A stretch of 59,007 nucleotides of DNA from a virus (taxonomy: Duplodnaviria > Caudoviricetes): positions 1 through 59,007 of the IMG/VR virus record IMGVR_UViG_3300022917_000011; one strand, written 5' to 3'. The notes beneath the pieces are model-generated. The model saw only the letters and a list, made by a program, of their open reading frames with translations, had not been told where the DNA came from and searched no databases. A program made the position numbers and the translations under genes. Positions 12,681-49,464 of this stretch are shown here, piece by piece. Each line of letters opens with the position of its first letter. Position 1 is the first letter of the stretch.

Positions 12681-15600
12681 ATGCCGACCGAGCCGCTAGA
12701 ATGGGCAGCAATCGAATCTGATCCTGATTTTCAGGCCATTCCTTTTCCCCAAAAAGAGCAGGTTTTCAACAACTGGAAAACCGATGTCTCGGGGTTTTTG
12801 AAAGCTCAAGGTGCTCCGGAAGAGGATATTCAAGCTTTCGATGGCGCGGCCAATTCTACCTTCGAGCGGCGTTTTCTAATCCCTGAAATTCAGCAGGCCC
12901 AGCAAGCTACCATCGGGATTGCAGAATTGGACGTTGCCCCTTATCGCGTAAATCCGCAGGACGAGCAAATCCTCAACAATGAGGCAGTGACGGCCATGCG
13001 CCTCTACAAGGAGCGCGGAGAGTGGGAAGCACTTCCTGCTGACCAACGGCAGGCACTGGAACGCCGGGCGGCGAAAGGGCAGGCAGAAAAGCCCTTTGTG
13101 GAAACTCGGGTTGCTCCGGAAAGTCCGCTCCAGCGGTTCTTCGGTCCTGCCGTCACCGCGCAGGCGCAGAAAGAGATGAACCGGGGCATCACGGACAGTG
13201 GCGGCGCAGTGGCTGGTGGTGCTCTTGGCACGCAGATGATGATGGGGCTCCGGGGTGGACCACTCGGTGTGCTGTTGCCTGTGGCCGGGGCGATTGGCGG
13301 GGCAATGGTCGGCGGTGGTGTGCAGGAAGAAGCGACTACACTTTTGGAGAATAGTCCCGAGGTCACTGCCACCCGGCGCGAACGCACGACTCAGCTTCAA
13401 AACTCCCCCGAATATAAAGGCGGTAGCCTGCTCGCCATGGGCTCGCTGTTCCGACCATCGCTCAGTGTGGTTCGTGGGGCGTTGCGCGGGGACGCGGAAG
13501 CCATCGGCAACCTTGCCATTGGCGGTGGTCTCGGCGTGGGCACAGCCGCCGTGCAGCCGATTCTCGAAGGCCGGATGCCCACCACAGGCGAACTGCTCGA
13601 AGGCGGGGCGCTGGGACTCGCCTTGCACCAACCTACGCGCTTGGCGCAAGGTCTGTTCGGCTTTCGCCCCTACCAGCTTCGGCCCAATGGCCTGACCGAC
13701 ACCGTGCGAACGCCGCTGGGAACGCTGGACGCTGAAGGCCGGATTGTGCAGCCCGACGCTCCTGAGGGCGTGGCCCTGCGCTCCATGGAGGGGTTGAAGG
13801 CCACGGAGCCCGTAGAACCGTTGCCGTCTAACGACGCTACATCGTTGCTGGATTCCATTGCGGTGAACCATACCCCCGAAGGTGGTCCCACCGATTGGGT
13901 GGCCGTGCGGAATACGCTTTCCTCCCTTCAGCCGAAAAGCGGGGCCGATCCCGAACTGGTAGGGGTTATGGACGAAGCTCTCCAAATGGCCAGGCAGCGG
14001 GCGGGAGATGAAGCACCTGTGGAAGCGGACGTTCTGCCGCCTGTCGATGCTATTCCGGAAGTAGGACCGGAAACTCGAAATGGGCAGACCGGACGCACTG
14101 TGGAAGGCATTTGGGTGCCCGACGAGTTGCCGCGTGCTCCGCAACGAACTGGAAATGAAACTCCAGAAAACGTGCTCCCAACAGAGACAGTTTTGGAAAC
14201 GAACGTGCCACCACCTCCGCCCGGGGACGTGTCCGGTGAACGTGTGCAGCCGCCGTGGCCTGCTGATGGTCCAGCAGGGGTTAGGAATGCTTTTACCGAA
14301 GCAGAACGCGTCCGTCTTGGTTTCCCTGGCCGGGAAGAATCCACGGCACGTGCTTTTCCGAAACTCCACGAGGCGGCAGCAAAAGCTTTTGACGAAAATC
14401 CGAATGCTGGAAGCCAACTGGTAAAGAGCTTGCAGGAAAATCCTCGGGTTCCCGATGGAGACGACATAGCTATTTTGACCTTCGAGGCCAAGCGGCGGCA
14501 GATGGCTGTGGACCAATCTTACGAGGCAGTAAACAACGCTCGTACGCCGGAAGAATTGGCCAAGGCGCAAACTCGTTTGTCCCAAGATGCCCTCGCTTAC
14601 CAAGAAGCGATGTCTGTTTATGAACTCACCGGGAGTGCTCAATCTGAGGGCTTTTATGCTCGCCGGATGATGGTGAACGAGGATTTTTCTTTGGCTCGAA
14701 TGCTCGCCCGCGAGCGAGCCACGAAGCCCGACGCTGCTCCGCTTACTCCGGCAGAAATCGCGGAAGTCGGGAAAGTCCACGATGAAATCAAAATCGCGCA
14801 GGAGAACGTCGCGAAAGTTGAATCCAAAATTGCGGACACGGAAGCCGAGCAAATCCATAAACAACTTTTGAAACAAGCCAAGGGCGCGGCGAAGGAGAAG
14901 AAAGGCTTGGTGGACTATTTTAACGAGCAGGCGGAGGCGGCTCGCAAGCGTATCATTGGACGCCGTGGCCGTCTCCAGACCGGAGACCCGCTAAACCTCG
15001 CGGGCTTGGTGGACGAGGCCATCATTGGCGCGTCCTACGTGGCCAAGGGGGTGCGTGACTTTGCCCAGTGGAGCAAGCAAATGCTCACCGAGTTTGGGGA
15101 GCGCGTGCGTCCCCATCTCCAAGACTTGTTCACTCGCAGCCAGCAAATCGAGGCGGAGAATTCCAAACCATTCCGCACGCCAACCCCCGCTGAGATTTTG
15201 ACCGAGGCCAATGGGGCGATGAACCCGAAGGTTGTTTTCGATCTCGCACGGGCACACGTCAATTCGGGCAAGACCGATATGGCGGAAGTGATGAAGGCGG
15301 TCCATGGAGACCTTCTGCCGACAAATCCCAACCTCACCGAGCGCCAAGTGAGGGATGCCTTCAGCGGCTACGGAAAAACCACTTTCCCTAGCAAGGCAGC
15401 AGACCTAACCGCGCTGCGCGAGATGAAGACGCTTGCCCGGCTCACGTCCCAACTGGAGGACGCGCAGCGGAAAATTGCCCCGCTCAAGTCGGGACCACAG
15501 CGGGACAAGGCATCGGCCAAAGTTCGAGAACTGCAAAAGAAAGTGGACGCCGAGATGCGCAAGCAAGGCATCAATCCAGGCAATCCAGCCACCCAGCTTG

Positions 15601-29065: not shown

Positions 29066-29506
29066 TCAGCTTGCGCCATGCAAATCCCACACTTCTACAA
29101 TGGTGGTTTGCAACTCCCCTTTTTCCGCTTTGCGTTGTCCGACCTCAATTTTTGTTTCTCCCGGCGCATCCGAAGGCAGTGCGCCAGCGTATCGGCAAAG
29201 GTCGCAAACAAGTTTTCCGCAGAGGTTGTCCTCATCGATAAGTCGGCTGCGGACACTCGTAATGCGGACAAGAAAGCGTTGGCCACGTCGTTCTTTATTT
29301 TTCGCCTTGCCCACTCGTCCACCGCGATCATGTCGTTCCAGCTTGGGACGCACGGACGAAGCACTTCCTTCTTCTCTCCCCGGCTGTTTTTCGATGAGCG
29401 GTAATTCGGGATCACGAGGCGAAGGATCAGCGTTGGCTGCGAGGAGTCCGGGGCTGGCATTGGGAAAGAGTCGCTTGAGTTCATCTTCGGTGATCTGGCG
29501 GTTCAT
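29066..29506 (-). CDS. RusA-like Holliday junction resolvase
   Basis: VRITSVRSRLIDEDNLCGKLVCDLCRYAGALPSD matches the RusA DxDNxxKxxxDxL..G....D pattern. Confidence 0.75.
   Translation of the reverse strand: MNRQITEDELKRLFPNASPGLLAANADPSPRDPELPLIEKQPGREEGSASSVRPKLERHDRGGRVGKAKNKERRGQRFLVRITSVRSRLIDEDNLCGKLVCDLCRYAGALPSDAPGETKIEVGQRKAEKGELQTTIVEVWDLHGAS
29095..29484 (-). CDS. Nested alternative-frame ORF resembling a RusA N-terminal half
   Basis: LILRLVIP...VPSWND....EWARRKIK; 129 codons open on the same strand. Confidence 0.45.
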   Translation of the reverse strand: MNSSDSFPMPAPDSSQPTLILRLVIPNYRSSKNSRGEKKEVLRPCVPSWNDMIAVDEWARRKIKNDVANAFLSALRVSAADLSMRTTSAENLFATFADTLAHCLRMRREKQKLRSDNAKRKKGSCKPPL

Positions 29507-30024
29507 CGGCCCCGAAAAGTTCTACCGTTGGCGATAAAAGAAACAACCGTTCGAGAAACTCCATACTCCGTTGCCAGTGTAGATTTCTCGCCTTTGCGGC
29601 CAGTTAGCCGACTTCTGATTTCCTTCGCGAGAGAATCGGAAATACAGTCTTTCCGCATGTATCTCCCGTGAAGCTTACGGTAGTCGTCTACGTTCTCTTT
29701 GCGCGTGCCCCAGCAAAGATTGGAGATGTGATTGTTGCGTGGATCCCCGTCCAAATGTCTGCACTCCAATCCGTGATCCCGTTTAGGGCCAAAAGTCTCA
29801 AGAACCAAATGGTGGACCTGAAACTTATTTCCACGGCCAAGGCTAACGTAAAGATGACCGCTTTTGTGGGCCCATGGCTTCAGCAGCGATCCACTGCCGA
29901 TCCTACGAATATCCCCAAACTCGGAGATTTCATATTTTGGGGCACGCGGGATTGCCACAAACGCTAGCGGTCTCGGCTGCCCCTTCGGATCGCCGTGGGC
30001 AAAGAATTGGATTGGCGGGGTCAT
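29503..30024 (-). mobile_element. NUMOD4-like + HNH homing endonuclease
   Basis: YEISEFGDIR, VHHLVLETF and CRHLDGDPRNNHISNLCWGT..EN motifs; C-terminal HTH. Confidence 0.92.
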
Positions 30025-30232
30025 TTGCGTTTGCGGCGGAGGTCGGGTTTGCGCTCGTCTGGATCGTAGCCAGCCTTCTCGCAAATTTCGCGGGCTCTAG
30101 TGGAGCCGACTTGGAAGATCTCCGTCATCATCACCCAGCGGGCGGTGTGCGTATTCCAGCCGGGCGGATTCTTCACCACTCGGCGAAGCAATTCCTCGGC
30201 GCTGTAGCCGGGAACGTATTCAACGTAATCGC

Positions 30233-31929: not shown

Positions 31930-32466
31930 TCATTCAGTCGGTTTCGGGTTGAGGGCGGCGGCTCTCCTAACGGAAGAGATGTCGAGATGCCGCCAAGTGA
32001 TTCCCTGCACGATGTCACGAATTGTTCCTCGGCTTACTCCGAAAACCTTTTTAATCCTGAAAGCGCGCTCCCCTAAATTGTAAAATCTGTGGAGGATGTC
32101 CCGCACGTTGTCTTCGGTGAGCTTGGCAAAACCATGGTTCTCACCACGTGCGTGCCGTCCTTTTGCAACTTTGTCCGCACTGTTATCTGTGTCCGTTCCG
32201 AGGAAAAGATGGGCTGGATTACAGCAACTGGGATTGTCGCAATGGTGGCAGACTAACAGACCTTGAGGAAACATCCCGTAGGCGTAAATATAGGCCAAAC
32301 GATGGGCTGAAAAATTGTAGGTCTTGGAGTCGCCCGGCCAGCGTTTTGCAAACACTTTGCCATAACCGGGGCCGTTCTTATGGCCGGTCCAATTCCAGCA
32401 TTGGTCGATCTCAGCCATCTGAACGCGGCTCCAGAACTTTTTTGGGCCGTCCTCCGAGCTTACCAT
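31930..32466 (-). mobile_element. HNH homing endonuclease
   Basis: FWSRV, CWNWTG, AHRLAY and VCHHCDNPSCCNPAHLFLGT..DN motifs; C-terminal HTH. The frame is open to 32568. Confidence 0.93.
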
Positions 32467-32563
32467 TTTTTCTAGCTGCCTCCTTTTGGAGAAGAGTGGA
32501 CTTACTTCCTCCAAGTTTTCCGAGGGCGACAGCAGCGGGGTTTTTCTTGATTTTTGCAGGCAT
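32411..32563 (-). CDS. Small basic peptide, paralog of 18696-18893
   Basis: MPAKIKKNPAAVALGKLGGSKSTLLQKEAARKNGKLGGRPKKVLEPRSDG (50 aa; below the ORF-track cutoff). Confidence 0.75.
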   Translation of the reverse strand: MPAKIKKNPAAVALGKLGGSKSTLLQKEAARKNGKLGGRPKKVLEPRSDG

Positions 32564-32564
32564 G

Positions 32565-33161
32565 TCATTCTCCTTTCTTAACCGCATCGCTGCGGTTTGT
32601 CAAAACTTTTTCTGCTCGGGCGAGGAGTTTCTGGATTTCTAGACATTGATTACAACCGCATGTTGGAGATGCCCAAAATCGGTCCTTCTTTATGGCTTCC
32701 GCCATCTCGCCAATCAGCTTCCGCGCCTCCTCGTAAGCCTGCTCAAGGCGGGCGGCGTCGGTGGCTTTCGTGTATTCGCCTTCTGGATTTTCAAATTCCG
32801 CGTAGTCGTAGGTATACCTCGTCAGCGGCAGTTTCAGGTTGATGGGCAACCGCTGAAGCTTCGGCTGCTCGCTGGCGGCTCCGTGGTATTGGCATGTCGC
32901 GCATTTACCCGGATCGGCAACTGGCTCATCGCAACTTGGGCAACGGTGCTCGCGGGCGGCATCCACGGCGGGAGGGGCAGATGGGCGGGCGAATTGAAAG
33001 ATTCGATGGTCGTGCCTTCCTAGTTTCTGGTCAGGAAACCGAAGCCATTTTGATTTGCCTTTCACGGCAAACCAGCATCCTTCAAGCCGCTCTCCTACGG
33101 CTGGATTTAATATCTGGTAGCCCTCAGGCGCTGCCTCTGGATTGGTGGGTTCGGCGCTCAT
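32565..33161 (-). CDS. Hypothetical protein with CxxC pairs
   Basis: 198 aa ORF containing CPSC and CATC. Confidence 0.6.
   Translation of the reverse strand: MSAEPTNPEAAPEGYQILNPAVGERLEGCWFAVKGKSKWLRFPDQKLGRHDHRIFQFARPSAPPAVDAAREHRCPSCDEPVADPGKCATCQYHGAASEQPKLQRLPINLKLPLTRYTYDYAEFENPEGEYTKATDAARLEQAYEEARKLIGEMAEAIKKDRFWASPTCGCNQCLEIQKLLARAEKVLTNRSDAVKKGE
32575..32603 (-). promoter_or_regulatory. Sigma70-type promoter with palindromic operator
   Basis: TTGACA-17 nt-TAAGAA; the spacer is the palindrome AACCGCA-n4-TGCGGTT (32580-32597). Confidence 0.72.
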
Positions 33162-42322: not shown

Positions 42323-42523
42323 TTAGTGGGCGGGGGCTGGGACGAAATGCCAATTTCCGAATTCGTCTTGTTGTCCACCCGCTTTGAATGGGTTATGTTC
42401 CCAGAGGTAACCGCCTTGCTTTTGGAGTTTGGTGGCGATTTTGATGGAGTTAGTGAAGCGGGAGACATTTCCGATTTCGTTGAAATTGGCCCGACTGGAG
42501 ATTTGATAGGTGTAAGTTTTCAT
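42323..42523 (-). CDS. Small early protein
   Basis: ATG lies 20 nt from the -12 element of the sigma54 motif. Confidence 0.65.
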   Translation of the reverse strand: MKTYTYQISSRANFNEIGNVSRFTNSIKIATKLQKQGGYLWEHNPFKAGGQQDEFGNWHFVPAPAH

Positions 42524-42541
42524 ATTGACGAATTTGTCTAT

Positions 42542-42557
42542 AGCATGTGCCATGCCA
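42542..42557 (-). promoter_or_regulatory. Sigma54 (-24/-12) promoter 2
   Basis: TGGCATG-GCAC-ATGCT, with exact GG-N10-GC spacing. Confidence 0.75.
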
Positions 42558-42565
42558 CGTCTCGT

Positions 42566-42832
42566 TTAGTTCAGGAAAACAGGTTGATCATCGACAATTA
42601 CGCAATTTCCCACAGGCGATTGGATGGCTACGATTTTCCCTTGGTATGTTCGGAAGGAATGCCGCCCGCCTTGGTTATCGACTGCCACCCACGATCCACC
42701 ATCCTGATGGAAATCGAAGGATACAAACTCGGTTTGGGAATTACGCATATTCACAAGCTCAAAGAATATTTGCCAGACGTTGGCATGTTGAGCTTGGAAA
42801 GAAACGAGGTTGGCGATGGATTGGATTTTCAT
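42566..42832 (-). CDS. First gene of the early arm, hypothetical
   Basis: 88 aa from ATG 42832, behind a sigma54 motif. Confidence 0.65.
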   Translation of the reverse strand: MKIQSIANLVSFQAQHANVWQIFFELVNMRNSQTEFVSFDFHQDGGSWVAVDNQGGRHSFRTYQGKIVAIQSPVGNCVIVDDQPVFLN

Positions 42833-42850
42833 ATTGACGAATTTGTATAT

Positions 42851-42866
42851 AGCAGGGTGCGTGCCA
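42851..42866 (-). promoter_or_regulatory. Sigma54 (-24/-12) promoter 1
   Basis: TGGCACG-CACC-CTGCT is a near-consensus match to TGGCACG-N4-TTGCW. Confidence 0.82.
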
Positions 42867-43074
42867 ACCCATTTTTCACTGTTGGGTGCCGGGGAAATGG
42901 GCGGAAAGTGGCAAGTCTGCCGACAAATCCATGTAAGCTTTTCCGACAAAAGCACGTGCAACAGAGTAAAAGCGCCTTTTTGAAACTGACAGATTTTCCG
43001 ACAAGCTGCTTTACACTCTTGCGTTGCTCTCTGTTGGATTGACAGGACCAGGTATTTACGCTTCTGTCGTAAAT

Positions 43075-43611
43075 ATGCCTGCTACCTTGGAAATCAATCG
43101 TGAGGAAGTCCGGATGCTCGTATTGGAGGTTGGGTGTAGGGAGGCTGCCCGCAGGCTGGGGATGAACGAAAATACGGTGATGGCGTGGTGTCGCCGATTC
43201 TCTTGGTTGGAAGGCCGCCCCGCGAATATTCCACTTCCGCCATCGGTGATTCAGCCTGCACGCAATGCACGCACGCCCGCTGAAGCAATGATGGACGCAT
43301 GGCGAGATGACATGGTCCAGACGCGTCTCGGTGGCTCCCGCATCGTGCGCAAACAAATCACAGAATTAGAGCAACGCTCTGGTGCTGAGCTAGTTGCAGA
43401 CGGTGGCGGCACCGTCCTGACCGTCCTGAAGGGTGCCGCACTCGTCCACGACTGGTCGAATCAAGGCACGCAGAAGGTCACGGTCTGCATCCAGGCCGGG
43501 CTCGGAGCCGCCGAGCTACCTCTTCCAGGCGCGGCCCAGGACATCGAGCTATCGGACGGGGACGCAGAGGTGACAGCGTGCGATCCCATGGATGATCCTA
43601 TGTTTAACTAG
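43075..43611 (+). CDS. HTH protein, terminase small subunit candidate
   Basis: REAARRLGMNENTVMAWCRRFSW HTH, helical middle and acidic tail; followed by a non-coding region. Confidence 0.6.
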   Translation: MPATLEINREEVRMLVLEVGCREAARRLGMNENTVMAWCRRFSWLEGRPANIPLPPSVIQPARNARTPAEAMMDAWRDDMVQTRLGGSRIVRKQITELEQRSGAELVADGGGTVLTVLKGAALVHDWSNQGTQKVTVCIQAGLGAAELPLPGAAQDIELSDGDAEVTACDPMDDPMFN

Positions 43612-44184
43612 CTGGTAATCAGCACAATGTGTGGACGCACACTACACAATGTTGCTATTTTATATGACCATTGTTGGCTGATTGCTTGGTGTGTTATGCG
43701 TCATAAACCGCTCAACATCATACCTTTATGACCGTAATACAGCGATGAGGGCGAGAAGGTTATTGCGACTCATGTGCTAAATATGTAGCACCTGATATTA
43801 TTATCACACAGCGTGGAACGTGTGGAACAAACAATCCCTTGCCAGGCGTGGCCTGTGCAGGAGGCGAGGGTGGGGGAGGGGGTTTCGGCGGTCGGCGTAT
43901 CGGTACCTACCCAGCAGAAGTTTTCTGCCACAAATCGGATTATAGCAGCTATAACCAGATTCAGGAATGTACTGTACTACGCATGCGCGTGACCCCCGGT
44001 GAATTGATGGCATTCGCCCGTGCGTGTGGACATCCTTGGTCTCTGGCAGGCCCGTGCTGGGCATTTTTTGTCCATGGGTAGCCCGAGAGGGGTAACGCGT
44101 GCGCAAGGCGCTGGCGGGGCTCGGGTGGATGCTGGCCCAAGGCATCGTTGGGACTGTTTACGCCGGGTTCCGCGTGCTTGTGCG

Positions 44185-44550
44185 CGTTAAGCTGGTTTTG
44201 TACTGGAGTTGCTCAGTTCCTGAGCGTACCGACCAGACCCCGTGGCTCACGCCCAAAGCATCATCTTTTCGCCCCTTGAGTGCTCCGTGGGATTGCTCCC
44301 TCTTCTGGTGTTTAGCCGAATGCCTGACGACGCTCGTGGGCTGACATGCAGCATTGAGTGGCTGCACCGCAGGTGGCCCGTGTGTTTCATATTTGTCCCG
44401 CCTCCACCTGCAACTTCCCTGGCCCCACTTTCGGGATTCGCTCTTTGCTGGAGAGCTACTTTCACCAGTTGGTTTCACACTTCGCACGTAGTGGGTTTCC
44501 CCGGCAAAGCTTGGTCACGATGTGATTCAGCGAACTGATGCTGAAATCCC
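44185..44550 (-). ncRNA. Large structured non-coding RNA candidate
   Basis: At least 8 nested helices, GAAA/GCAA tetraloops and an AGUA/GAA E-loop; no credible ORF. Confidence 0.65.
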
Positions 44551-44964
44551 ACAGGACCGACAAAGTTGCAAGAGATTTTACTTTTCTTTTGAAAAAAGTA
44601 ATATGTTTTTTCAAAAAAATGGGGCGTAAAAAATCCGCACAATCCCTTCGCAATAAGGTAATTTCAAGAATTTACGGGCATCACAGGGGGGTGGATAAAT
44701 ATCTGGCTGGAAGATCGTGGTGTGATGGATTTGCCGCAACCATGAACCCGCATCCAGACGGCATTTGCGAGTGTGGCGCGGCACGCTTCGTCTTGCACCA
44801 CTGGCAGTCGCACGGAGACTTTGGAGAATCCATTATGGCTGTAAATGTGTGTAGAGTTACACGACGGTTGACAGCGCCCAACGTTGGGTTTAAGAAAGGG
44901 TCGTAAGCACTCTCCCAATTCTCCAACGCCGCGAGCGCTGGATGAAGCGAAAATCTTGAGTTTC

Positions 44965-45003
44965 AGCTCCCGAAGACGGCAAATCTTCGGGAGTTTTCGT
45001 TTC
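44965..45003 (+). terminator. Intrinsic terminator-like hairpin
   Basis: AGCTCCCGAAGA-7 nt-TCTTCGGGAGTT stem followed by TTCGTTT. Confidence 0.55.
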
Positions 45004-45830
45004 TACATGGAGCGCGCCGAATCGGCGTGAGGGGATGGGAAATTTTTTTTGGTAGACGGCTTGTTGTCCCTTCCGCCCCGGTTTAAGCGATGTGATTTGG
45101 TGACCCGAGCATTCGGCCACCCGCCCAACGCAGGCGTCTCCATGCACTTTCCCCTTGCCAACTGTCAAGCAATCCTTGACAGTTCGACTGCTGCGCGGAC
45201 TCGGCGTAAGTCTGGAGGGATGGATGCAGGGGCCGCGTGGCGCTGATTTTACCTATGAAACTCCTAGCTCTCAGTCTATCCATCATCCTCACCGGCTGCA
45301 CCGCGTCCCTCCAATACGTCGATCCCGAGTCAGGCGTCAGCGCCGGACTGAACCACAACTTCGATGGAAAGACGATCAAGAGGCTGAGGAAATGAACTGG
45401 CTGCTTCTCTTCTGGTGCGCGTGGATGGCCTACGAGGTTGCCACCGCCAAACTCGACCCGAACGATCCATGAACAGGTCACTTCTCGTAGGATGGTGGAG
45501 AAAAACTTGGGGCCATTGCCCTGGGTGCAATGATGACGCACCCGGAGGTCGATACCTGTGAAATTTGCTTTCAGGGAATGAATCGTGACCCCTACCCTCG
45601 TCCGGACTACACCATCAGACTTTACTGGAATCGGTTCAAACTCCGCCTTCAAAAACCATGAAAACCCAACTCGAAGCAGGACTGGAGAGGCATCGGGCCA
45701 AACCACCGATATCCACCCAAGTCATCAGTGAAACGGAGAAAAATAAACTGGTGGAAATTGGCGATGGTCGGAACCGCTGCTACGCATGGATGAATAAAAT
45801 CCAGAAACCAATCGTGGTGCTTCATCGAAA

Positions 45831-46217
45831 ATGAAATCCCTCCTATTCATCACTCTCCTCGCTCTAGCCGGATGCGCCAGTCCGACCTTCCCGACCTACT
45901 TCAAATACCAGCCCACCGGAGGCGTTTTCCTCTCCGAGGACACCCCGCGCCGGAGGCTGGAATGGATGCTCTCGCGGCAGGACGATCCGGCCATCGTGGG
46001 CCTTGTGCGCTCCCACGAACTCCGCACCACCGGGAAGCTCAATCCCAACCATGGTGCCTGCTTCCAGAAATCCCAGGCGGTGCTGCTGGGCACCCAGGGT
46101 CATCCCGAACTCGGGAACTTCACTATTGCCTCCAAGGACGATCATGCGTTCGTTCTCTGGACCACGCCCACGGGTGAGAAATTCACCATCGACGGCACCA
46201 CTATTTCACCGCTATGA
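45831..46217 (+). CDS. Lipoprotein with transglutaminase/papain-like Cys-His-Asp pattern
   Basis: Lipobox LAGC; GACFQKS, HAFV and IDGT motifs. Confidence 0.6.
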   Translation: MKSLLFITLLALAGCASPTFPTYFKYQPTGGVFLSEDTPRRRLEWMLSRQDDPAIVGLVRSHELRTTGKLNPNHGACFQKSQAVLLGTQGHPELGNFTIASKDDHAFVLWTTPTGEKFTIDGTTISPL

Positions 46218-46522
46218 CCACTGAAGAAATCAAAACCATGCAGACGACCCTTCACATGAAGGGCTTCGGCGGCGTTCCTGGTCGGAAGGGTATGAAGCAC
46301 GACCACGCTTGCCACTGTGGAACTGCTGCTCTCCCGCATGATGTGGGGGAAGATGGGTGCGTTCGGCGAATGACGGCCAACCCAGTCCAAGTCGGAGATA
46401 AATGGGAAGTTGGAGATGCCCTGATTACTGACTATTCGCTGCACCAACAACGCGGCTATCACTGGCACCCGTGCGGCTGCTGGAGCCGTTCTCCTGGAAG
46501 TGAAAATTCAATAACTGCATGA
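46214..46522 (+). CDS. Hypothetical Cys/His-rich protein
   Basis: Start and stop are coupled with both neighbours. Confidence 0.55.
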   Translation: MTTEEIKTMQTTLHMKGFGGVPGRKGMKHDHACHCGTAALPHDVGEDGCVRRMTANPVQVGDKWEVGDALITDYSLHQQRGYHWHPCGCWSRSPGSENSITA

Positions 46523-46761
46523 GCGACGACGACTCCCAACAGAAGGAGGATATGGATTTGGTGGAGAAAGCCTGCATTGGCTTGGGAGAGCATTTCGATA
46601 CCGTGATGATTTTTGCCACCCGTCTTGAGGCCGGAGAGTTGGATGGGACAGTGAATATCAACTTCGGTTCCGGAAATTGGTTTGCCCGGTACGGGCAGGT
46701 CAAAGCATGGATCGTGAAGCAGGAAGAGAGGGACAGGAAGCACGTGAGGGAAGAAGAATGA
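46519..46761 (+). CDS. Small hypothetical protein (LGEHFD...GNWFARYG)
   Basis: 80 aa, start/stop coupled. Confidence 0.7.
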   Translation: MSDDDSQQKEDMDLVEKACIGLGEHFDTVMIFATRLEAGELDGTVNINFGSGNWFARYGQVKAWIVKQEERDRKHVREEE

Positions 46762-47645
46762 TCCCCGTCATCAATCCTGACTGCACCGGACGCGGCCCGT
46801 TGAGAGAATGTCAAATGTTGGGACTCGTGAGAAAGCTCAAGGAGAAGGGCACGCTCAACCAGCCCGCTCCCGCCTGTGAGGGCCGGGGCATTGTCATCGC
46901 CGGGGGAGGACGCTACCTCAGCCACGCCTGGGCTGTCTGCCGTCACCTCCGCAAGCTCGGGTGGACTGAGGGCATCCAGGTGTGGCACCTGGGCAAAACC
47001 GAGATGCCCGACTCCGCACGCCCACGGTTCGCCGCGCTCGATGTCGAATTGGTGGATGCGCTGGAGATGCGGAGGAGCAGGCCCATGCGAATGATGGGCG
47101 GCTGGCAACTCAAGGGGTATATCATGAAGCACTGCCGCTGGCGGCATATCATCTTCATGGACGCAGATCTGATTTTGAACGTCCATCCTGAGGAGATTTT
47201 CAGCGACAAGGACGTGCATCGGGCCGGATCATTTTTCATGTCGGACGTGGGCAAGCACCACCCGAACGGGTGGGGGTTCCGCTATTGTGCCGTGCCCCAC
47301 CCCAAGCTCGAATGGGAGACGGGCTTTTTCCTCGTTGACCGCGTGCGCTCATGGCCAGCGATTTGCTGGGCTTACTGGATGTTCGAGCACAGTGACGTGT
47401 GGTTCAAAATGTTTCACGGAGACAAGGGCGTCATCCACGCGGCGTTCCTGATGACCAACTGCCCGCACATCCTCAACGAGGACGCTCGGTGGAATCCCGC
47501 CTTTGGCATCGCCCACTGGTGGAAGGGCCGTCAGATTGTCAGTCACATGATGCGAAGTAAGCGCGGAGAGAGCACTTGGCCGGAAGAGTTCGCGGAGTGC
47601 TTGGATGAGTGGCACGAGTTTACCCAGAATACCGTGCCCGCGTAG
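46758..47645 (+). CDS. Glycosyltransferase, GT71 (Mnn-type mannosyltransferase)-like
   Basis: RGIVIAGGGRY, LRKLG...IQVWH, GWQLK, FMDAD (DxD), ETG and HGDK motifs. Confidence 0.85.
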   Translation: MIPVINPDCTGRGPLRECQMLGLVRKLKEKGTLNQPAPACEGRGIVIAGGGRYLSHAWAVCRHLRKLGWTEGIQVWHLGKTEMPDSARPRFAALDVELVDALEMRRSRPMRMMGGWQLKGYIMKHCRWRHIIFMDADLILNVHPEEIFSDKDVHRAGSFFMSDVGKHHPNGWGFRYCAVPHPKLEWETGFFLVDRVRSWPAICWAYWMFEHSDVWFKMFHGDKGVIHAAFLMTNCPHILNEDARWNPAFGIAHWWKGRQIVSHMMRSKRGESTWPEEFAECLDEWHEFTQNTVPA

Positions 47646-49464
47646 CGTGCCCACTGTAGCGCGGAACGCTCGCAGGTTCCACCCGAGGCGTGTCCTGCGC
47701 TCGGCGGCTCTCGGGCGTGGATGGCCCGGCGCCCATTCCTAGGGCCACTAACAACGTGAGCACTCTCGCGTCTCCCTCGTCAGGAGACCGGCCCAGGCGC
47801 TTTTTCATCTCCTTCTTCTGTTCCACGGAGAACTTTTTGGTTCCGCCACCTTTGTAGCGTCGGGAGCAGAGATGGTCGATGGCTTTGCAGTGCGGGCTGC
47901 ACCCCCGAACGATCTTTTTGCGCACGGCTTCGCGAAAATTCATCCACAACTGGGAGACTTTCCGGTCGAACATTTCTTTTGCCGTGCGTTTTTCACCTTG
48001 CACCGTGATCCGGTCGTCCGGCGAGCCCATGAAGGACACCGGAATGAGGTTCAGTTTCCACCCCCGCTTCAGAACTTCGTCCTTGATCGCGGTGGCGGTC
48101 ATGCCGCCGTCGCCGGAAATGTCGATGGCGAGGTCGTGGCAGTTGTTCGCCACCAGTTCGTCTACCGCTCGGATGGCCATTTGTTTCTCGAACCCATCTT
48201 TCGAGTTTTGGATGGGGTGTAATCGCTTTCCGTCCCGGTTTATCCAGTCCACCACCATGTCACTGCTCACATCTTTTCCCACTTTGGCGAAGTCGATAAC
48301 CGATGGATCGCCCCCTTCACGGAATCCGCAGTCCATCCCCCCGGCAATCTTCTGCACGGCCATCGGAGCCCACTCGGTTTTCTCGAAAGCGCGGTGGCTC
48401 TCCAGAAATTTGCGGTCCACCACCTTGTCCGACACCTCCACGCCAGGCGGGAAGCCGTAAAATTGCACCCAGAAGACGTTGGTATCGTCTCCGCCTGCCA
48501 TCTCACGAATTTCCTCCCGCGCCACGGCGTTCATCATGAACGGAAAGGGTGGTTTCTTCGGGTCGGGTGCCTCAAAATTGGGGGATTTCGCGCCGTTGAA
48601 GTAGAAACACACCCCCGTCTTGGTTTTCCAGCGGTCGTGCGCCTCGATGTCTACGCTTCGGTAACCATCGGGAAAGGCTTCCCCCACTGGCTCCGCGTCC
48701 ATGTAGAGAGGCGAGCCCTCGGTGGGAGCATTTCCGATGCCGATGAACTGCGCGAACGGGTTGGAGAACAAGTTCACGCGGGCGTCCATGATGCCCAACT
48801 CCATGAAGTTCAATTCGTCGCAAATCCACAGCACTCGCTTGTTTTTGCGTCCACAGATGGAGCCGACCGCACTCCGCCCCTCGTTCCCCGTCTTGATTTT
48901 GACGAATTTGATGACATCGCGGAAATCGCGTTGCTTCGCTCCCTCGTCGTCCTTGGTTTCGGCGTCCAGGCAGATGAGTTGGAGCGAGTCGATGCGCTTG
49001 CCGATTTGAAATCGGTCCTTGGAGAAAAGGTCTTTGATGACGCCCCACATACGCGCTTCGCCTGCTTCCGCCGACGTCGTGCTGAGGTAAACCGAGGTGC
49101 CCTCGGGGTTCACCTTCCACATCGTGTAGCCGTACATCGCTGCACACTGGGATTTGGTGCTGCTCGCGCAGCCGACGAGCGACAGCCGCTTGAAAGAACA
49201 AAACGCCTTGGCCATCTTCAGGCACCACGAGTTCAGGATGCCGTCCTTTTCGATGACAAAAAAGTCCGGCCACATGATCTGCCAGAGCCGCACCAGGAAC
49301 TGATGCTTGAATTCGTGCGCGAACGGTGTGGAGGTGAACGCCCGCGCCGTGACCTCATACTCCGTCGCGTTCCGCTGCTGAAAGCGTTGCGTGACCTCGT
49401 TCGCTGCTGGGCGGATGGTCTTCTCCATCCACGCCTTCGCCGCACTAGAAATCGCCCAGCCCAC
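47620..49464 (-). CDS. terL: Terminase large subunit
   Basis: Deviant Walker A GCASSTKS, Walker B WICDE, GIGN motif III, nuclease GMDCG and GRSPDEGDA; 614 aa. Confidence 0.9.
   Translation of the reverse strand: MGWAISSAAKAWMEKTIRPAANEVTQRFQQRNATEYEVTARAFTSTPFAHEFKHQFLVRLWQIMWPDFFVIEKDGILNSWCLKMAKAFCSFKRLSLVGCASSTKSQCAAMYGYTMWKVNPEGTSVYLSTTSAEAGEARMWGVIKDLFSKDRFQIGKRIDSLQLICLDAETKDDEGAKQRDFRDVIKFVKIKTGNEGRSAVGSICGRKNKRVLWICDELNFMELGIMDARVNLFSNPFAQFIGIGNAPTEGSPLYMDAEPVGEAFPDGYRSVDIEAHDRWKTKTGVCFYFNGAKSPNFEAPDPKKPPFPFMMNAVAREEIREMAGGDDTNVFWVQFYGFPPGVEVSDKVVDRKFLESHRAFEKTEWAPMAVQKIAGGMDCGFREGGDPSVIDFAKVGKDVSSDMVVDWINRDGKRLHPIQNSKDGFEKQMAIRAVDELVANNCHDLAIDISGDGGMTATAIKDEVLKRGWKLNLIPVSFMGSPDDRITVQGEKRTAKEMFDRKVSQLWMNFREAVRKKIVRGCSPHCKAIDHLCSRRYKGGGTKKFSVEQKKEMKKRLGRSPDEGDARVLTLLVALGMGAGPSTPESRRAQDTPRVEPASVPRYSGHATRARYSG

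Follow-up and report, generated by a model that had tools for sequence, protein, structure and literature searches.

The window analysed here is the entire 59,007-nt IMG/VR virus record IMGVR_UViG_3300022917_000011 (Duplodnaviria; Caudoviricetes), from a phage lineage that has no cultured relative. Its largest non-coding tract lies between a gene for a helix-turn-helix (HTH) protein and a plus-strand cluster of small lipoprotein-like genes with a glycosyltransferase gene (~45252-47645), with the gene for the large terminase (TerL) beyond the cluster. An earlier note, made from the sequence alone, had proposed that this tract holds an ornate structured RNA of ~370 nt, read from the minus strand at 44185-44550. 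The reading that we favour, at a probability of roughly 40%, is a horizontally exchanged minus-strand non-coding RNA module, whose boundaries and fold differ from the proposed ones because conservation and folding place the limits elsewhere. Table 1 lists the features of the locus.

A recurring core within a non-coding tract

The earlier note had taken the region to be non-coding, and we come to the same view of 43612-45251 because coding score, GC pattern, homology searches and family searches were all negative. From 43625 to ~45500, all six frames have negative values of a three-periodic Markov score trained on 28 long open reading frames (ORFs), against 7.1 +/- 5.0 for true genes. GC content at the three codon positions is flat in both of the long ORFs that cross the proposed interval (GC1/2/3 of 0.57/0.58/0.59 and 0.55/0.57/0.57), the values for the 28 genes being 0.58/0.46/0.65; the dip at the second position is also seen in confirmed small genes nearby. 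The minus-strand frame has no homologue in a protein collection of 5.8 billion clusters, a phmmer search of 1.84 billion representatives with the plus-strand frame was equally negative, and a 95-aa ORF at 44619-44903 has no entry in the protein collection, the window's own included. Eleven ORF translations over 43804-45706 gave no Pfam and no credible PHROG matches (one PHROG row stood at E 0.028 among 10 proteins). An alternative genetic code was considered and dropped, as there is no suppressor tRNA and no frame opens up.

Three indexed sequencing runs contain words of 43600-44700, namely the probable source and two small-share runs from other studies. From the latter, we were able to compare two contigs with the window over 43000-45000: a 223-nt wastewater contig (X2), which carries 44273-44478 (206 nt) with three changes, and a 151-nt freshwater contig (X3), which carries 44384-44478 (95 nt) with one change (44388 C>T, common to both). 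By our own reading of its loose end, the wastewater contig continues after a 2-base gap with 8 matching bases, to 44488. Beyond ~44478-44488 the two contigs are unlike the window and unlike each other, while the low-coordinate ends of the matches are contig ends, not boundaries. We therefore have a non-coding, non-repetitive piece found at 98.5-99% identity in three contexts, with a sharp edge. Two of the three changes fall in predicted loops or unpaired positions; the third falls in a helix, with its partner base outside the contig. Three further short matches of 34-37 nt with 2-7 differences (44094-44130 and the AT-rich 44560-44593 and 44583-44617) were left out of account as unreliable. No RNA run is listed among the runs that contain the stretch; one of the small-share runs is labelled RNA-Seq/cDNA and rated probably DNA, and we draw nothing on expression from it.

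A conserved piece that is open in two frames could be an unrecognised small protein gene, either in the minus-strand frame from 44487 or 44478 to 44158 (106-109 aa, basic, beginning at the conservation edge) or in the plus-strand ORF 44242-44538 (98 aa). Both frames are open through the whole conserved core, the minus-strand frame has 1 stop in 236 codons, a GUG stands exactly at the onset of identity with the two contigs, and in the plus-strand ORF two of the three variants leave the protein unchanged. We nevertheless consider this the least probable of the readings weighed here, and a highly unlikely one: neither frame has a homologue or family match, their codon-position GC is flat and their coding score negative, all three changes of the wastewater contig are non-synonymous in the open minus-strand frame (0 of 3 synonymous), the 2-base gap in that contig would shift both ORFs, and no ribosome-binding sequence was seen by eye. 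At the local density of stops (15 in 709 nt over three frames, split 1, 4 and 10), a frame with at most one stop has P ~0.04 per frame, and we put the openness of the minus-strand frame down to local composition.

Table 1. Features of the non-coding tract and its surroundings, in order of position (minus-strand hairpins are given 5' to 3')
Feature	Coordinates	Strand	Remarks
HTH protein, 195 aa	43024-43611	+	weak Terminase_5 / HTH_23 matches, below Pfam cut-offs
Non-coding tract	43612-45251		~1.6 kb, largest in the genome
Block shared with nearest relative (L004)	43803-43964		L004 14390-14552; only tract block shared with it
Terminator-like hairpin	44042-44070	+	with T run; 430 nt past the HTH gene
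P1, 3' arm	44139-44164	-	
Interval of the earlier note	44185-44550	-	local hairpins real; whole interval no more stable than shuffles
GCUCAG/CUGAGC	44225-44211	-	
Recurring core	44273-44488		near-unchanged in contigs of two other runs
GGGA-GCAA-UCCC	44300-44289	-	
UGCAGC/GCUGCA	44366-44347	-	
GCAGGUGG/CCACCUGC	44411-44369	-	8-bp stem
CCC-GAAAGU-GGG hairpin	within 44185-44550	-	
P2, 3' strand	44403-44438	-	inside the conserved core
GCUCU/AGAGC	44460-44437	-	with AGUA and GAA flanks
GGG-GAAA-CCC	44502-44493	-	
UUCAGC/GCUGAA	44545-44526	-	
P2, 5' strand	44545-44575	-	predicted long helix; pairs with 44403-44438
AT-only perfect palindrome	44584-44619		11-14 bp stem, 8-nt loop
P1, 5' arm	44623-44648	-	imperfect inverted repeat / predicted closing helix
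Terminator-like hairpin, strong	44965-44995	+	12 pairs, then T-rich run
Perfect 10-bp palindrome	45160-45184		5-nt loop; contains TTGACA; operator-like
Lipoprotein-like ORF, 47 aa	45252-45395	+	lipobox LTGC; spanin-like
ORF, 58 aa	45658-45834	+	stop overlaps (ATGA) start of the 128-aa lipoprotein
Lipoprotein, 128 aa	45831-46217	+	lipobox LAGC
Large terminase (TerL)	47620-49464	-	assigned by fold

Folding of the minus strand

Scored against dinucleotide shuffles, the minus strand of the 526-nt region 44130-44655 has z -2.94, a fold that none of 100 shuffles equals, and the plus strand has z -0.42, so that folding energy of the wider region agrees with the strand first proposed. The longer region 44130-45420 gives z -3.00 and -1.10, respectively (30 shuffles each). 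Among sliding 300-nt windows, 6 of 24 reach z -2.46 or lower on the minus strand, all between 44300 and 45399, and 0 of 24 do so on the plus strand; one of 60 control windows elsewhere reaches -2.5 (mean -0.24, sd 0.97). According to the folding models, this wider minus-strand signal arises via helices other than those first listed. The main one among these, P2 (29 pairs; pair probability 0.6-0.97), is specific to the minus strand because 8 of its pairs are G-U, and it is retained at P ~0.9 in a threefold larger context of 1451 nt. It competes with the 8-bp stem and the CCC/GGG hairpin of Table 1. The arms of a second predicted helix, P1, are 26 nt long and 77% complementary as DNA, and form 22 pairs, including two G-U pairs, as RNA.

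Under the reading that we favour, a discrete minus-strand module would lie in the gene-free tract between the HTH gene and the lipoprotein/glycosyltransferase cluster, and would be made as RNA. Conservation would put its 5' limit at ~44478-44488, and folding suggests that the structured part extends upstream to ~44575-44650, perhaps to 45400. The core helix would be the G-U-rich P2 (44575-44545 with 44438-44403), in place of the long-range closures of the earlier note. We infer that the module is transcribed and acts as RNA, and that it moves between phages as a cassette. Its role can be guessed at: it might be a regulatory or scaffold RNA tied to the control of late, lysis or packaging genes and antisense to plus-strand transcripts that cross the tract. 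A more ambitious version, which we put forward tentatively and regard as doubtful, is that this is a new class of phage RNA (minus-strand, G-U-rich, ~0.35-1.3 kb, filling most of the largest gene-free tract, beside packaging and lysis genes) with a 200-300-nt core exchanged near-unchanged as a cassette among otherwise unrelated phages of soil litter, wastewater and freshwater. Thus far unproven, but plausible, is an element on the minus strand that is larger than first proposed, folds in another way and has a core common to several phages.

A good number of findings weigh against this reading, and they begin with the interval first proposed. Every local helix claimed there on the minus strand was found where the earlier note had placed it, and six of the eight have pair probabilities of 0.4-1.0 in the ensemble of the 526-nt context (the 8-bp stem has 0.06-0.08, and the CCC/GGG hairpin 0.00). 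The hairpin density of the interval is ordinary: it has four perfect hairpins of at least 6 bp (loop 3-30) vs. 2.61 +/- 1.72 per 376-nt window genome-wide, 26% of such windows having at least four, and 8 stems of at least 5 bp vs. 9.76 +/- 3.56 per window. Neither the interval nor its core has excess stability over shuffles. For 376 nt of the minus strand, the minimum free energy (MFE) is -128.9 kcal/mol vs. -124.1 +/- 5.7 for shuffles (z -0.84; 18 of 100 as good), the plus strand has z +0.15, and the 288-nt core 44200-44487 has z 0.06 (minus) and 0.12 (plus). Folding no better than shuffles was among the outcomes that the earlier note itself had named as telling against its candidate, and the ornate ~370-nt fold is not supported here. 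The bases of its long-range closures (CUGGUG/CACCAG and GACCA/UGGUC) are indeed complementary, but the closures are not favoured, with pair probabilities of 0.00-0.02. The putative E-loop (the sarcin-ricin or bulged-G motif, AGUA opposite GAA between two helices) is a sequence match: AGUA and GAA do flank GCUCU/AGAGC, and beyond these flanks a single A-U can close in place of a second enclosing helix. In the predicted fold, two of the three bases of the GAA strand (44438-44437) are used by another helix, and in the predicted ensemble 44438-44432 are paired with 44551-44545 instead.

The claim that GNRA loops are specific to the minus strand does stand (three hairpins with stems of at least 3 bp there, none on the plus strand). 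GNRA hairpins occur at 0.65 per kb genome-wide, three or more are found in 0.3% of 376-nt minus-strand windows, and by Poisson arithmetic ~0.6 clusters of three are expected in a 59-kb genome over both strands; the cluster is suggestive only because it falls within the genome's largest non-coding tract, and it is a post-hoc feature.

As for the wider region, P1 is lost on enlarging the context, and the predicted architecture is unstable in the models save for P2. With DNA parameters the minus-strand bias shrinks (z -2.41 vs. -1.28), and perfect palindromes, which might function at the DNA level, contribute much of the additional folding energy. Neither a sigma-70-like promoter nor an intrinsic terminator that would serve a minus-strand RNA turned up in a simple scan, and the tract taken by itself resembles a regulatory hub. 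In the nearest relative (L004), a global alignment of the spacer shows no similarity over the claimed RNA, and that spacer folds at z -0.79 on the equivalent strand and at -2.17 on the opposite one. Patterns taken from the candidate (44244-44465, exact or degenerate) have no copies in IMG/VR (five patterns) or in the GTDB representatives (two patterns); blastn of 43600-44700 and 44640-45460 found no match among GenBank phages (INPHARED), nor did 44150-44500 among plasmids (PLSDB). To these is added that no Rfam family is matched in the window.

Relatives, DNA-type signals and surrounding genes

The statement that the candidate lies near a putative packaging region holds, with TerL ~3 kb off. 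TerL has no Pfam or PHROG match; its model, built from 34 homologues, has a predicted local distance difference test score (pLDDT) of 85, and its best structural matches are Sf6 gp2, T4 gp17, D6E and HK97 TerL. Against 50,697 GenBank phage records it has one partial match only, at 27% identity. We found 104 homologues of TerL at E <= 1e-10, and the 34 of them that were aligned led to 13 metagenome and 19 viral loci (TerL alone led to two partial loci); the HTH protein as a query found no related loci. Homologues of TerL at 59-75% identity (P0002, P0003 and P0005-P0008) are known from Logan contigs only. Three TerL homologues of this lineage (P0074, P0092 and P0099) are 911-952 aa long, with intein or LAGLIDADG domains (PF14890, PF14528). 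For the HTH protein, whose model (pLDDT 47) was left out of the fold search, two identities come into question, a regulator or a protein of the small-terminase kind.

The nearest relative among the retrieved loci, L004, has a TerL 60% identical to that of the window, an HTH orthologue at 42% identity and an 880-nt spacer after that gene. By tblastn of the related loci, the HTH orthologue is found in this relative only, and the small ORF in none. Searching the tract against 34 related loci (nhmmer, blastn) gave a sole match, to L004, limited to the block of Table 1, and a search of the record of L022 gave no real match. The shared block lies ~190-350 nt past the stop of the HTH gene in window and relative alike, and contains a C-rich run, GGTACC and the palindrome TTATAGC-NN-CTATAA, with a TGCTATAAT on the window's minus strand; the HTH protein is a candidate to bind it, and a packaging or promoter site is the other option. 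A pattern taken from it had no copies in IMG/VR. Rfam models found only a tRNA in seven related loci, and ARAGORN identified a tRNA-Met in 3 of 14 relatives' loci (L005, L017 and L018) at the corresponding position (13575-13649, just past the glycosyltransferase gene, on the strand equivalent to the minus strand of the window). These three are probably one phage lineage, since the tRNA coordinates are identical.

The conserved, palindromic block at a fixed distance from the HTH gene bears on another explanation, which we hold to be nearly as probable as the one we favour: a control region that acts in cis as DNA, without an RNA of its own. The tract would then be a regulatory hub of promoters, HTH operators, terminators and possibly an origin or packaging-initiation site, with the hairpins in 44185-44550 being what any spacer of 55% GC gives. 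The block is the only part of the tract shared with L004, whose spacer is otherwise unconserved and strand-discordant, and neither the number of hairpins nor the z-scores of the claimed interval stand out. At 40, 60 and 100 nt alike, the AT content of the genome is highest at 44562-44620 (85% AT over 40 nt), directly adjoining the candidate RNA. This spot consists of nested perfect palindromes, and the AT-only palindrome in it might serve as promoter, operator or DNA unwinding element. By our own count the genome has ~7 perfect short-loop hairpins of at least 10 bp, and three of them lie in 44587-45184. Two plus-strand terminator-like hairpins, the weak Terminase_5 match of the HTH protein and the TerL gene 3 kb away fit the same picture. 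What a DNA region does not readily account for is the 300-nt claimed core. Neither repeats nor iterons nor strong palindromes occur in it, and still part of it recurs at 98.5-99% identity, with an abrupt edge, in two further habitats. Moreover, the excess of folding energy on the minus strand depends on G-U pairs, for which a site acting as duplex DNA has no use, and the GNRA loops are confined to one strand.

The same terminator-like hairpins, being on the plus strand, would also suit a plus-strand leader or attenuator RNA that regulates read-through into the downstream plus-strand genes, in the manner of the late leader of phage lambda, which lies between Q and the lysis genes. The genes on either side are plus-strand genes, the layout is the same in L004, where an endolysin-like gene follows the spacer, and the L004 spacer folds better on this strand; in the window itself, plus-strand windows over 43500-44199 have z of about -2, and 44650-45250 has z -2.28 with a centroid close to the MFE structure. 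We think this improbable: on the plus strand, the claimed interval gives z +0.15, +0.12 and -0.42 and has no GNRA hairpin, and the sharp module edge at 44478-44488 would be left unexplained.

Other observations concern the surroundings of the tract. Beside the palindrome with TTGACA, 45190-45341 is predicted to form an imperfect hairpin of ~150 nt with 43 pairs; the start of the 47-aa lipoprotein-like ORF (45252) falls within its tip. Where the window has its small lipoprotein genes, L004 has the endolysin-like gene (226 aa); no endolysin was identified in the window. Two small minus-strand genes share a direct repeat of 41 nt (85% identical, 42517-42557 and 42826-42866) that takes in their start codons and the sequence upstream of them, as though one promoter or translation-start cassette had been used twice. 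DnaB-type helicase and HTH_36 proteins are encoded 17 kb from the tract. The phage carries a load of sugar-type and 2-oxoacid-type genes that is unusual for a phage (17598-23390, 46677-47645 and 51294-51977), including a GT2 glycosyltransferase, an FkbM methyltransferase, a zinc alcohol dehydrogenase and two more glycosyltransferases, as well as E1_dh-like and transketolase-pyrimidine-binding-like proteins. There are also two HNH_3 homing-endonuclease-like genes (29503-30084 and 31930-32568), one of them with a NUMOD4 motif.

What the tract would mean depends on which explanation holds. If the module is a real RNA, it would add one more family to the short list of large phage RNAs (ROOL, GOLLD), and such an RNA would have been shown travelling as a cassette. 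If it is a control region only, the value is local, in that it locates the promoters and terminators of this lineage, and perhaps its origin or packaging site; the case would also show that hairpins and GNRA loops picked out of a sequence have to be set against their frequency in the whole genome before they are taken as evidence.

Comparison with known RNAs and mobile elements

The earlier note had been unable to assign the candidate to a family, and a cmscan of the whole window likewise gave no Rfam matches at gathering score. Permissive Rfam scans (43400-44750, 44150-44500 and 44600-45450) returned only snoRNA, miRNA and sRNA rows at 10-17 bits vs. cut-offs of 35-65, chance-level rows at E up to 10. 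A fragment of a transfer-messenger RNA (tmRNA), RNase P RNA, signal recognition particle (SRP) RNA or 6S RNA was considered and rejected, with no Rfam rows in support. A phage attachment site (attP) carrying the 3' end of a host gene was rejected as well: the scanned ORFs contain no integrase, GTDB representatives have no copy, and only two runs contain it.

Near-identical copies with a sharp edge and three different neighbours would be explained by the remnant or miniature of a mobile element, intron-like or of the kind of a miniature inverted-repeat transposable element (MITE), spreading between phages. GUGYG is the 5' consensus of group II introns, and the window has GUGCG at 44487-44483, where its homology with the wastewater contig starts by our own reading of the loose end. 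The candidate resembles a group II intron in having GUGCG at the module start in two of the three contexts, with a small hairpin just upstream, and in its mobile-like copies. It differs in that no host gene is split and the third context, the freshwater contig, starts 9 nt further in than GUGCG. Scans that admitted E values of up to 10 gave no Intron_gpII or domain V/VI row, inspection by eye showed no GNRA hairpin of the domain-V type, and no reverse transcriptase was found by Pfam in 51 gene-like ORFs, nor in 10 tract ORFs; an integrase was likewise lacking among the 51. For group I introns, no model row appeared in the Rfam scans, and the flanks are non-coding. A MITE-like element might be suspected from the 26-nt imperfect inverted repeat that brackets 44139-44648, and the two HNH_3 endonuclease genes indicate that mobile DNA is active in this phage. 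Against it, no direct repeat (target-site duplication) was seen by eye to flank the repeat, the edge of the two contigs lies inside the inverted repeat and not at its ends, the genome has a single copy, and only two further runs contain any part. We rate a mobile remnant as still less probable than a plus-strand leader.

Three other systems are analogies of position only. The lambdoid late region has the order Q-qut-6S RNA-tR' upstream of the lysis genes, and the tract is like it in being a long spacer that leads from a regulator-like gene to lysis-type genes, with terminators inside. The lambdoid RNA, however, has the orientation of the genes; the signals in the tract point to the other strand, and no antiterminator was identified. 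Single-strand initiation or origin signals (ssi/sso) of phages and plasmids are likewise strand-specific folded segments of 150-300 nt beside an AT-rich tract, and the minus-strand bias here persists with DNA parameters; the tract differs in having no iterons. The packaging RNA (pRNA) of phi29 represents an Rfam family, with RNAs of ~120-170 nt from protein-primed phages that have a small ATPase. Like it, the present candidate would be a non-coding phage RNA encoded within a few kb of a terminase gene, but it has no Rfam match and its phage has a classical large terminase.

The closest comparison is that with ROOL and GOLLD. According to a published account (PMC12286853), these large RNAs of phages and prophages are defined by covariation over many sequences, lie frequently, not obligatorily, beside tRNA genes or islands in phages, and have profiles that, together with that of OLE, are taken from Rfam. 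The candidate differs from all three in matching no Rfam model. It differs from ROOL and GOLLD in that ARAGORN finds no tRNA in the window, that it consists of one locus and two fragments, whereas those classes are known from many sequences, and that the claimed interval has no excess folding energy. It is like them in being phage-borne, in lying in a non-coding tract, in its length of hundreds of nt and in its GNRA loops, and three of the relatives' loci have a tRNA-Met at the corresponding place.

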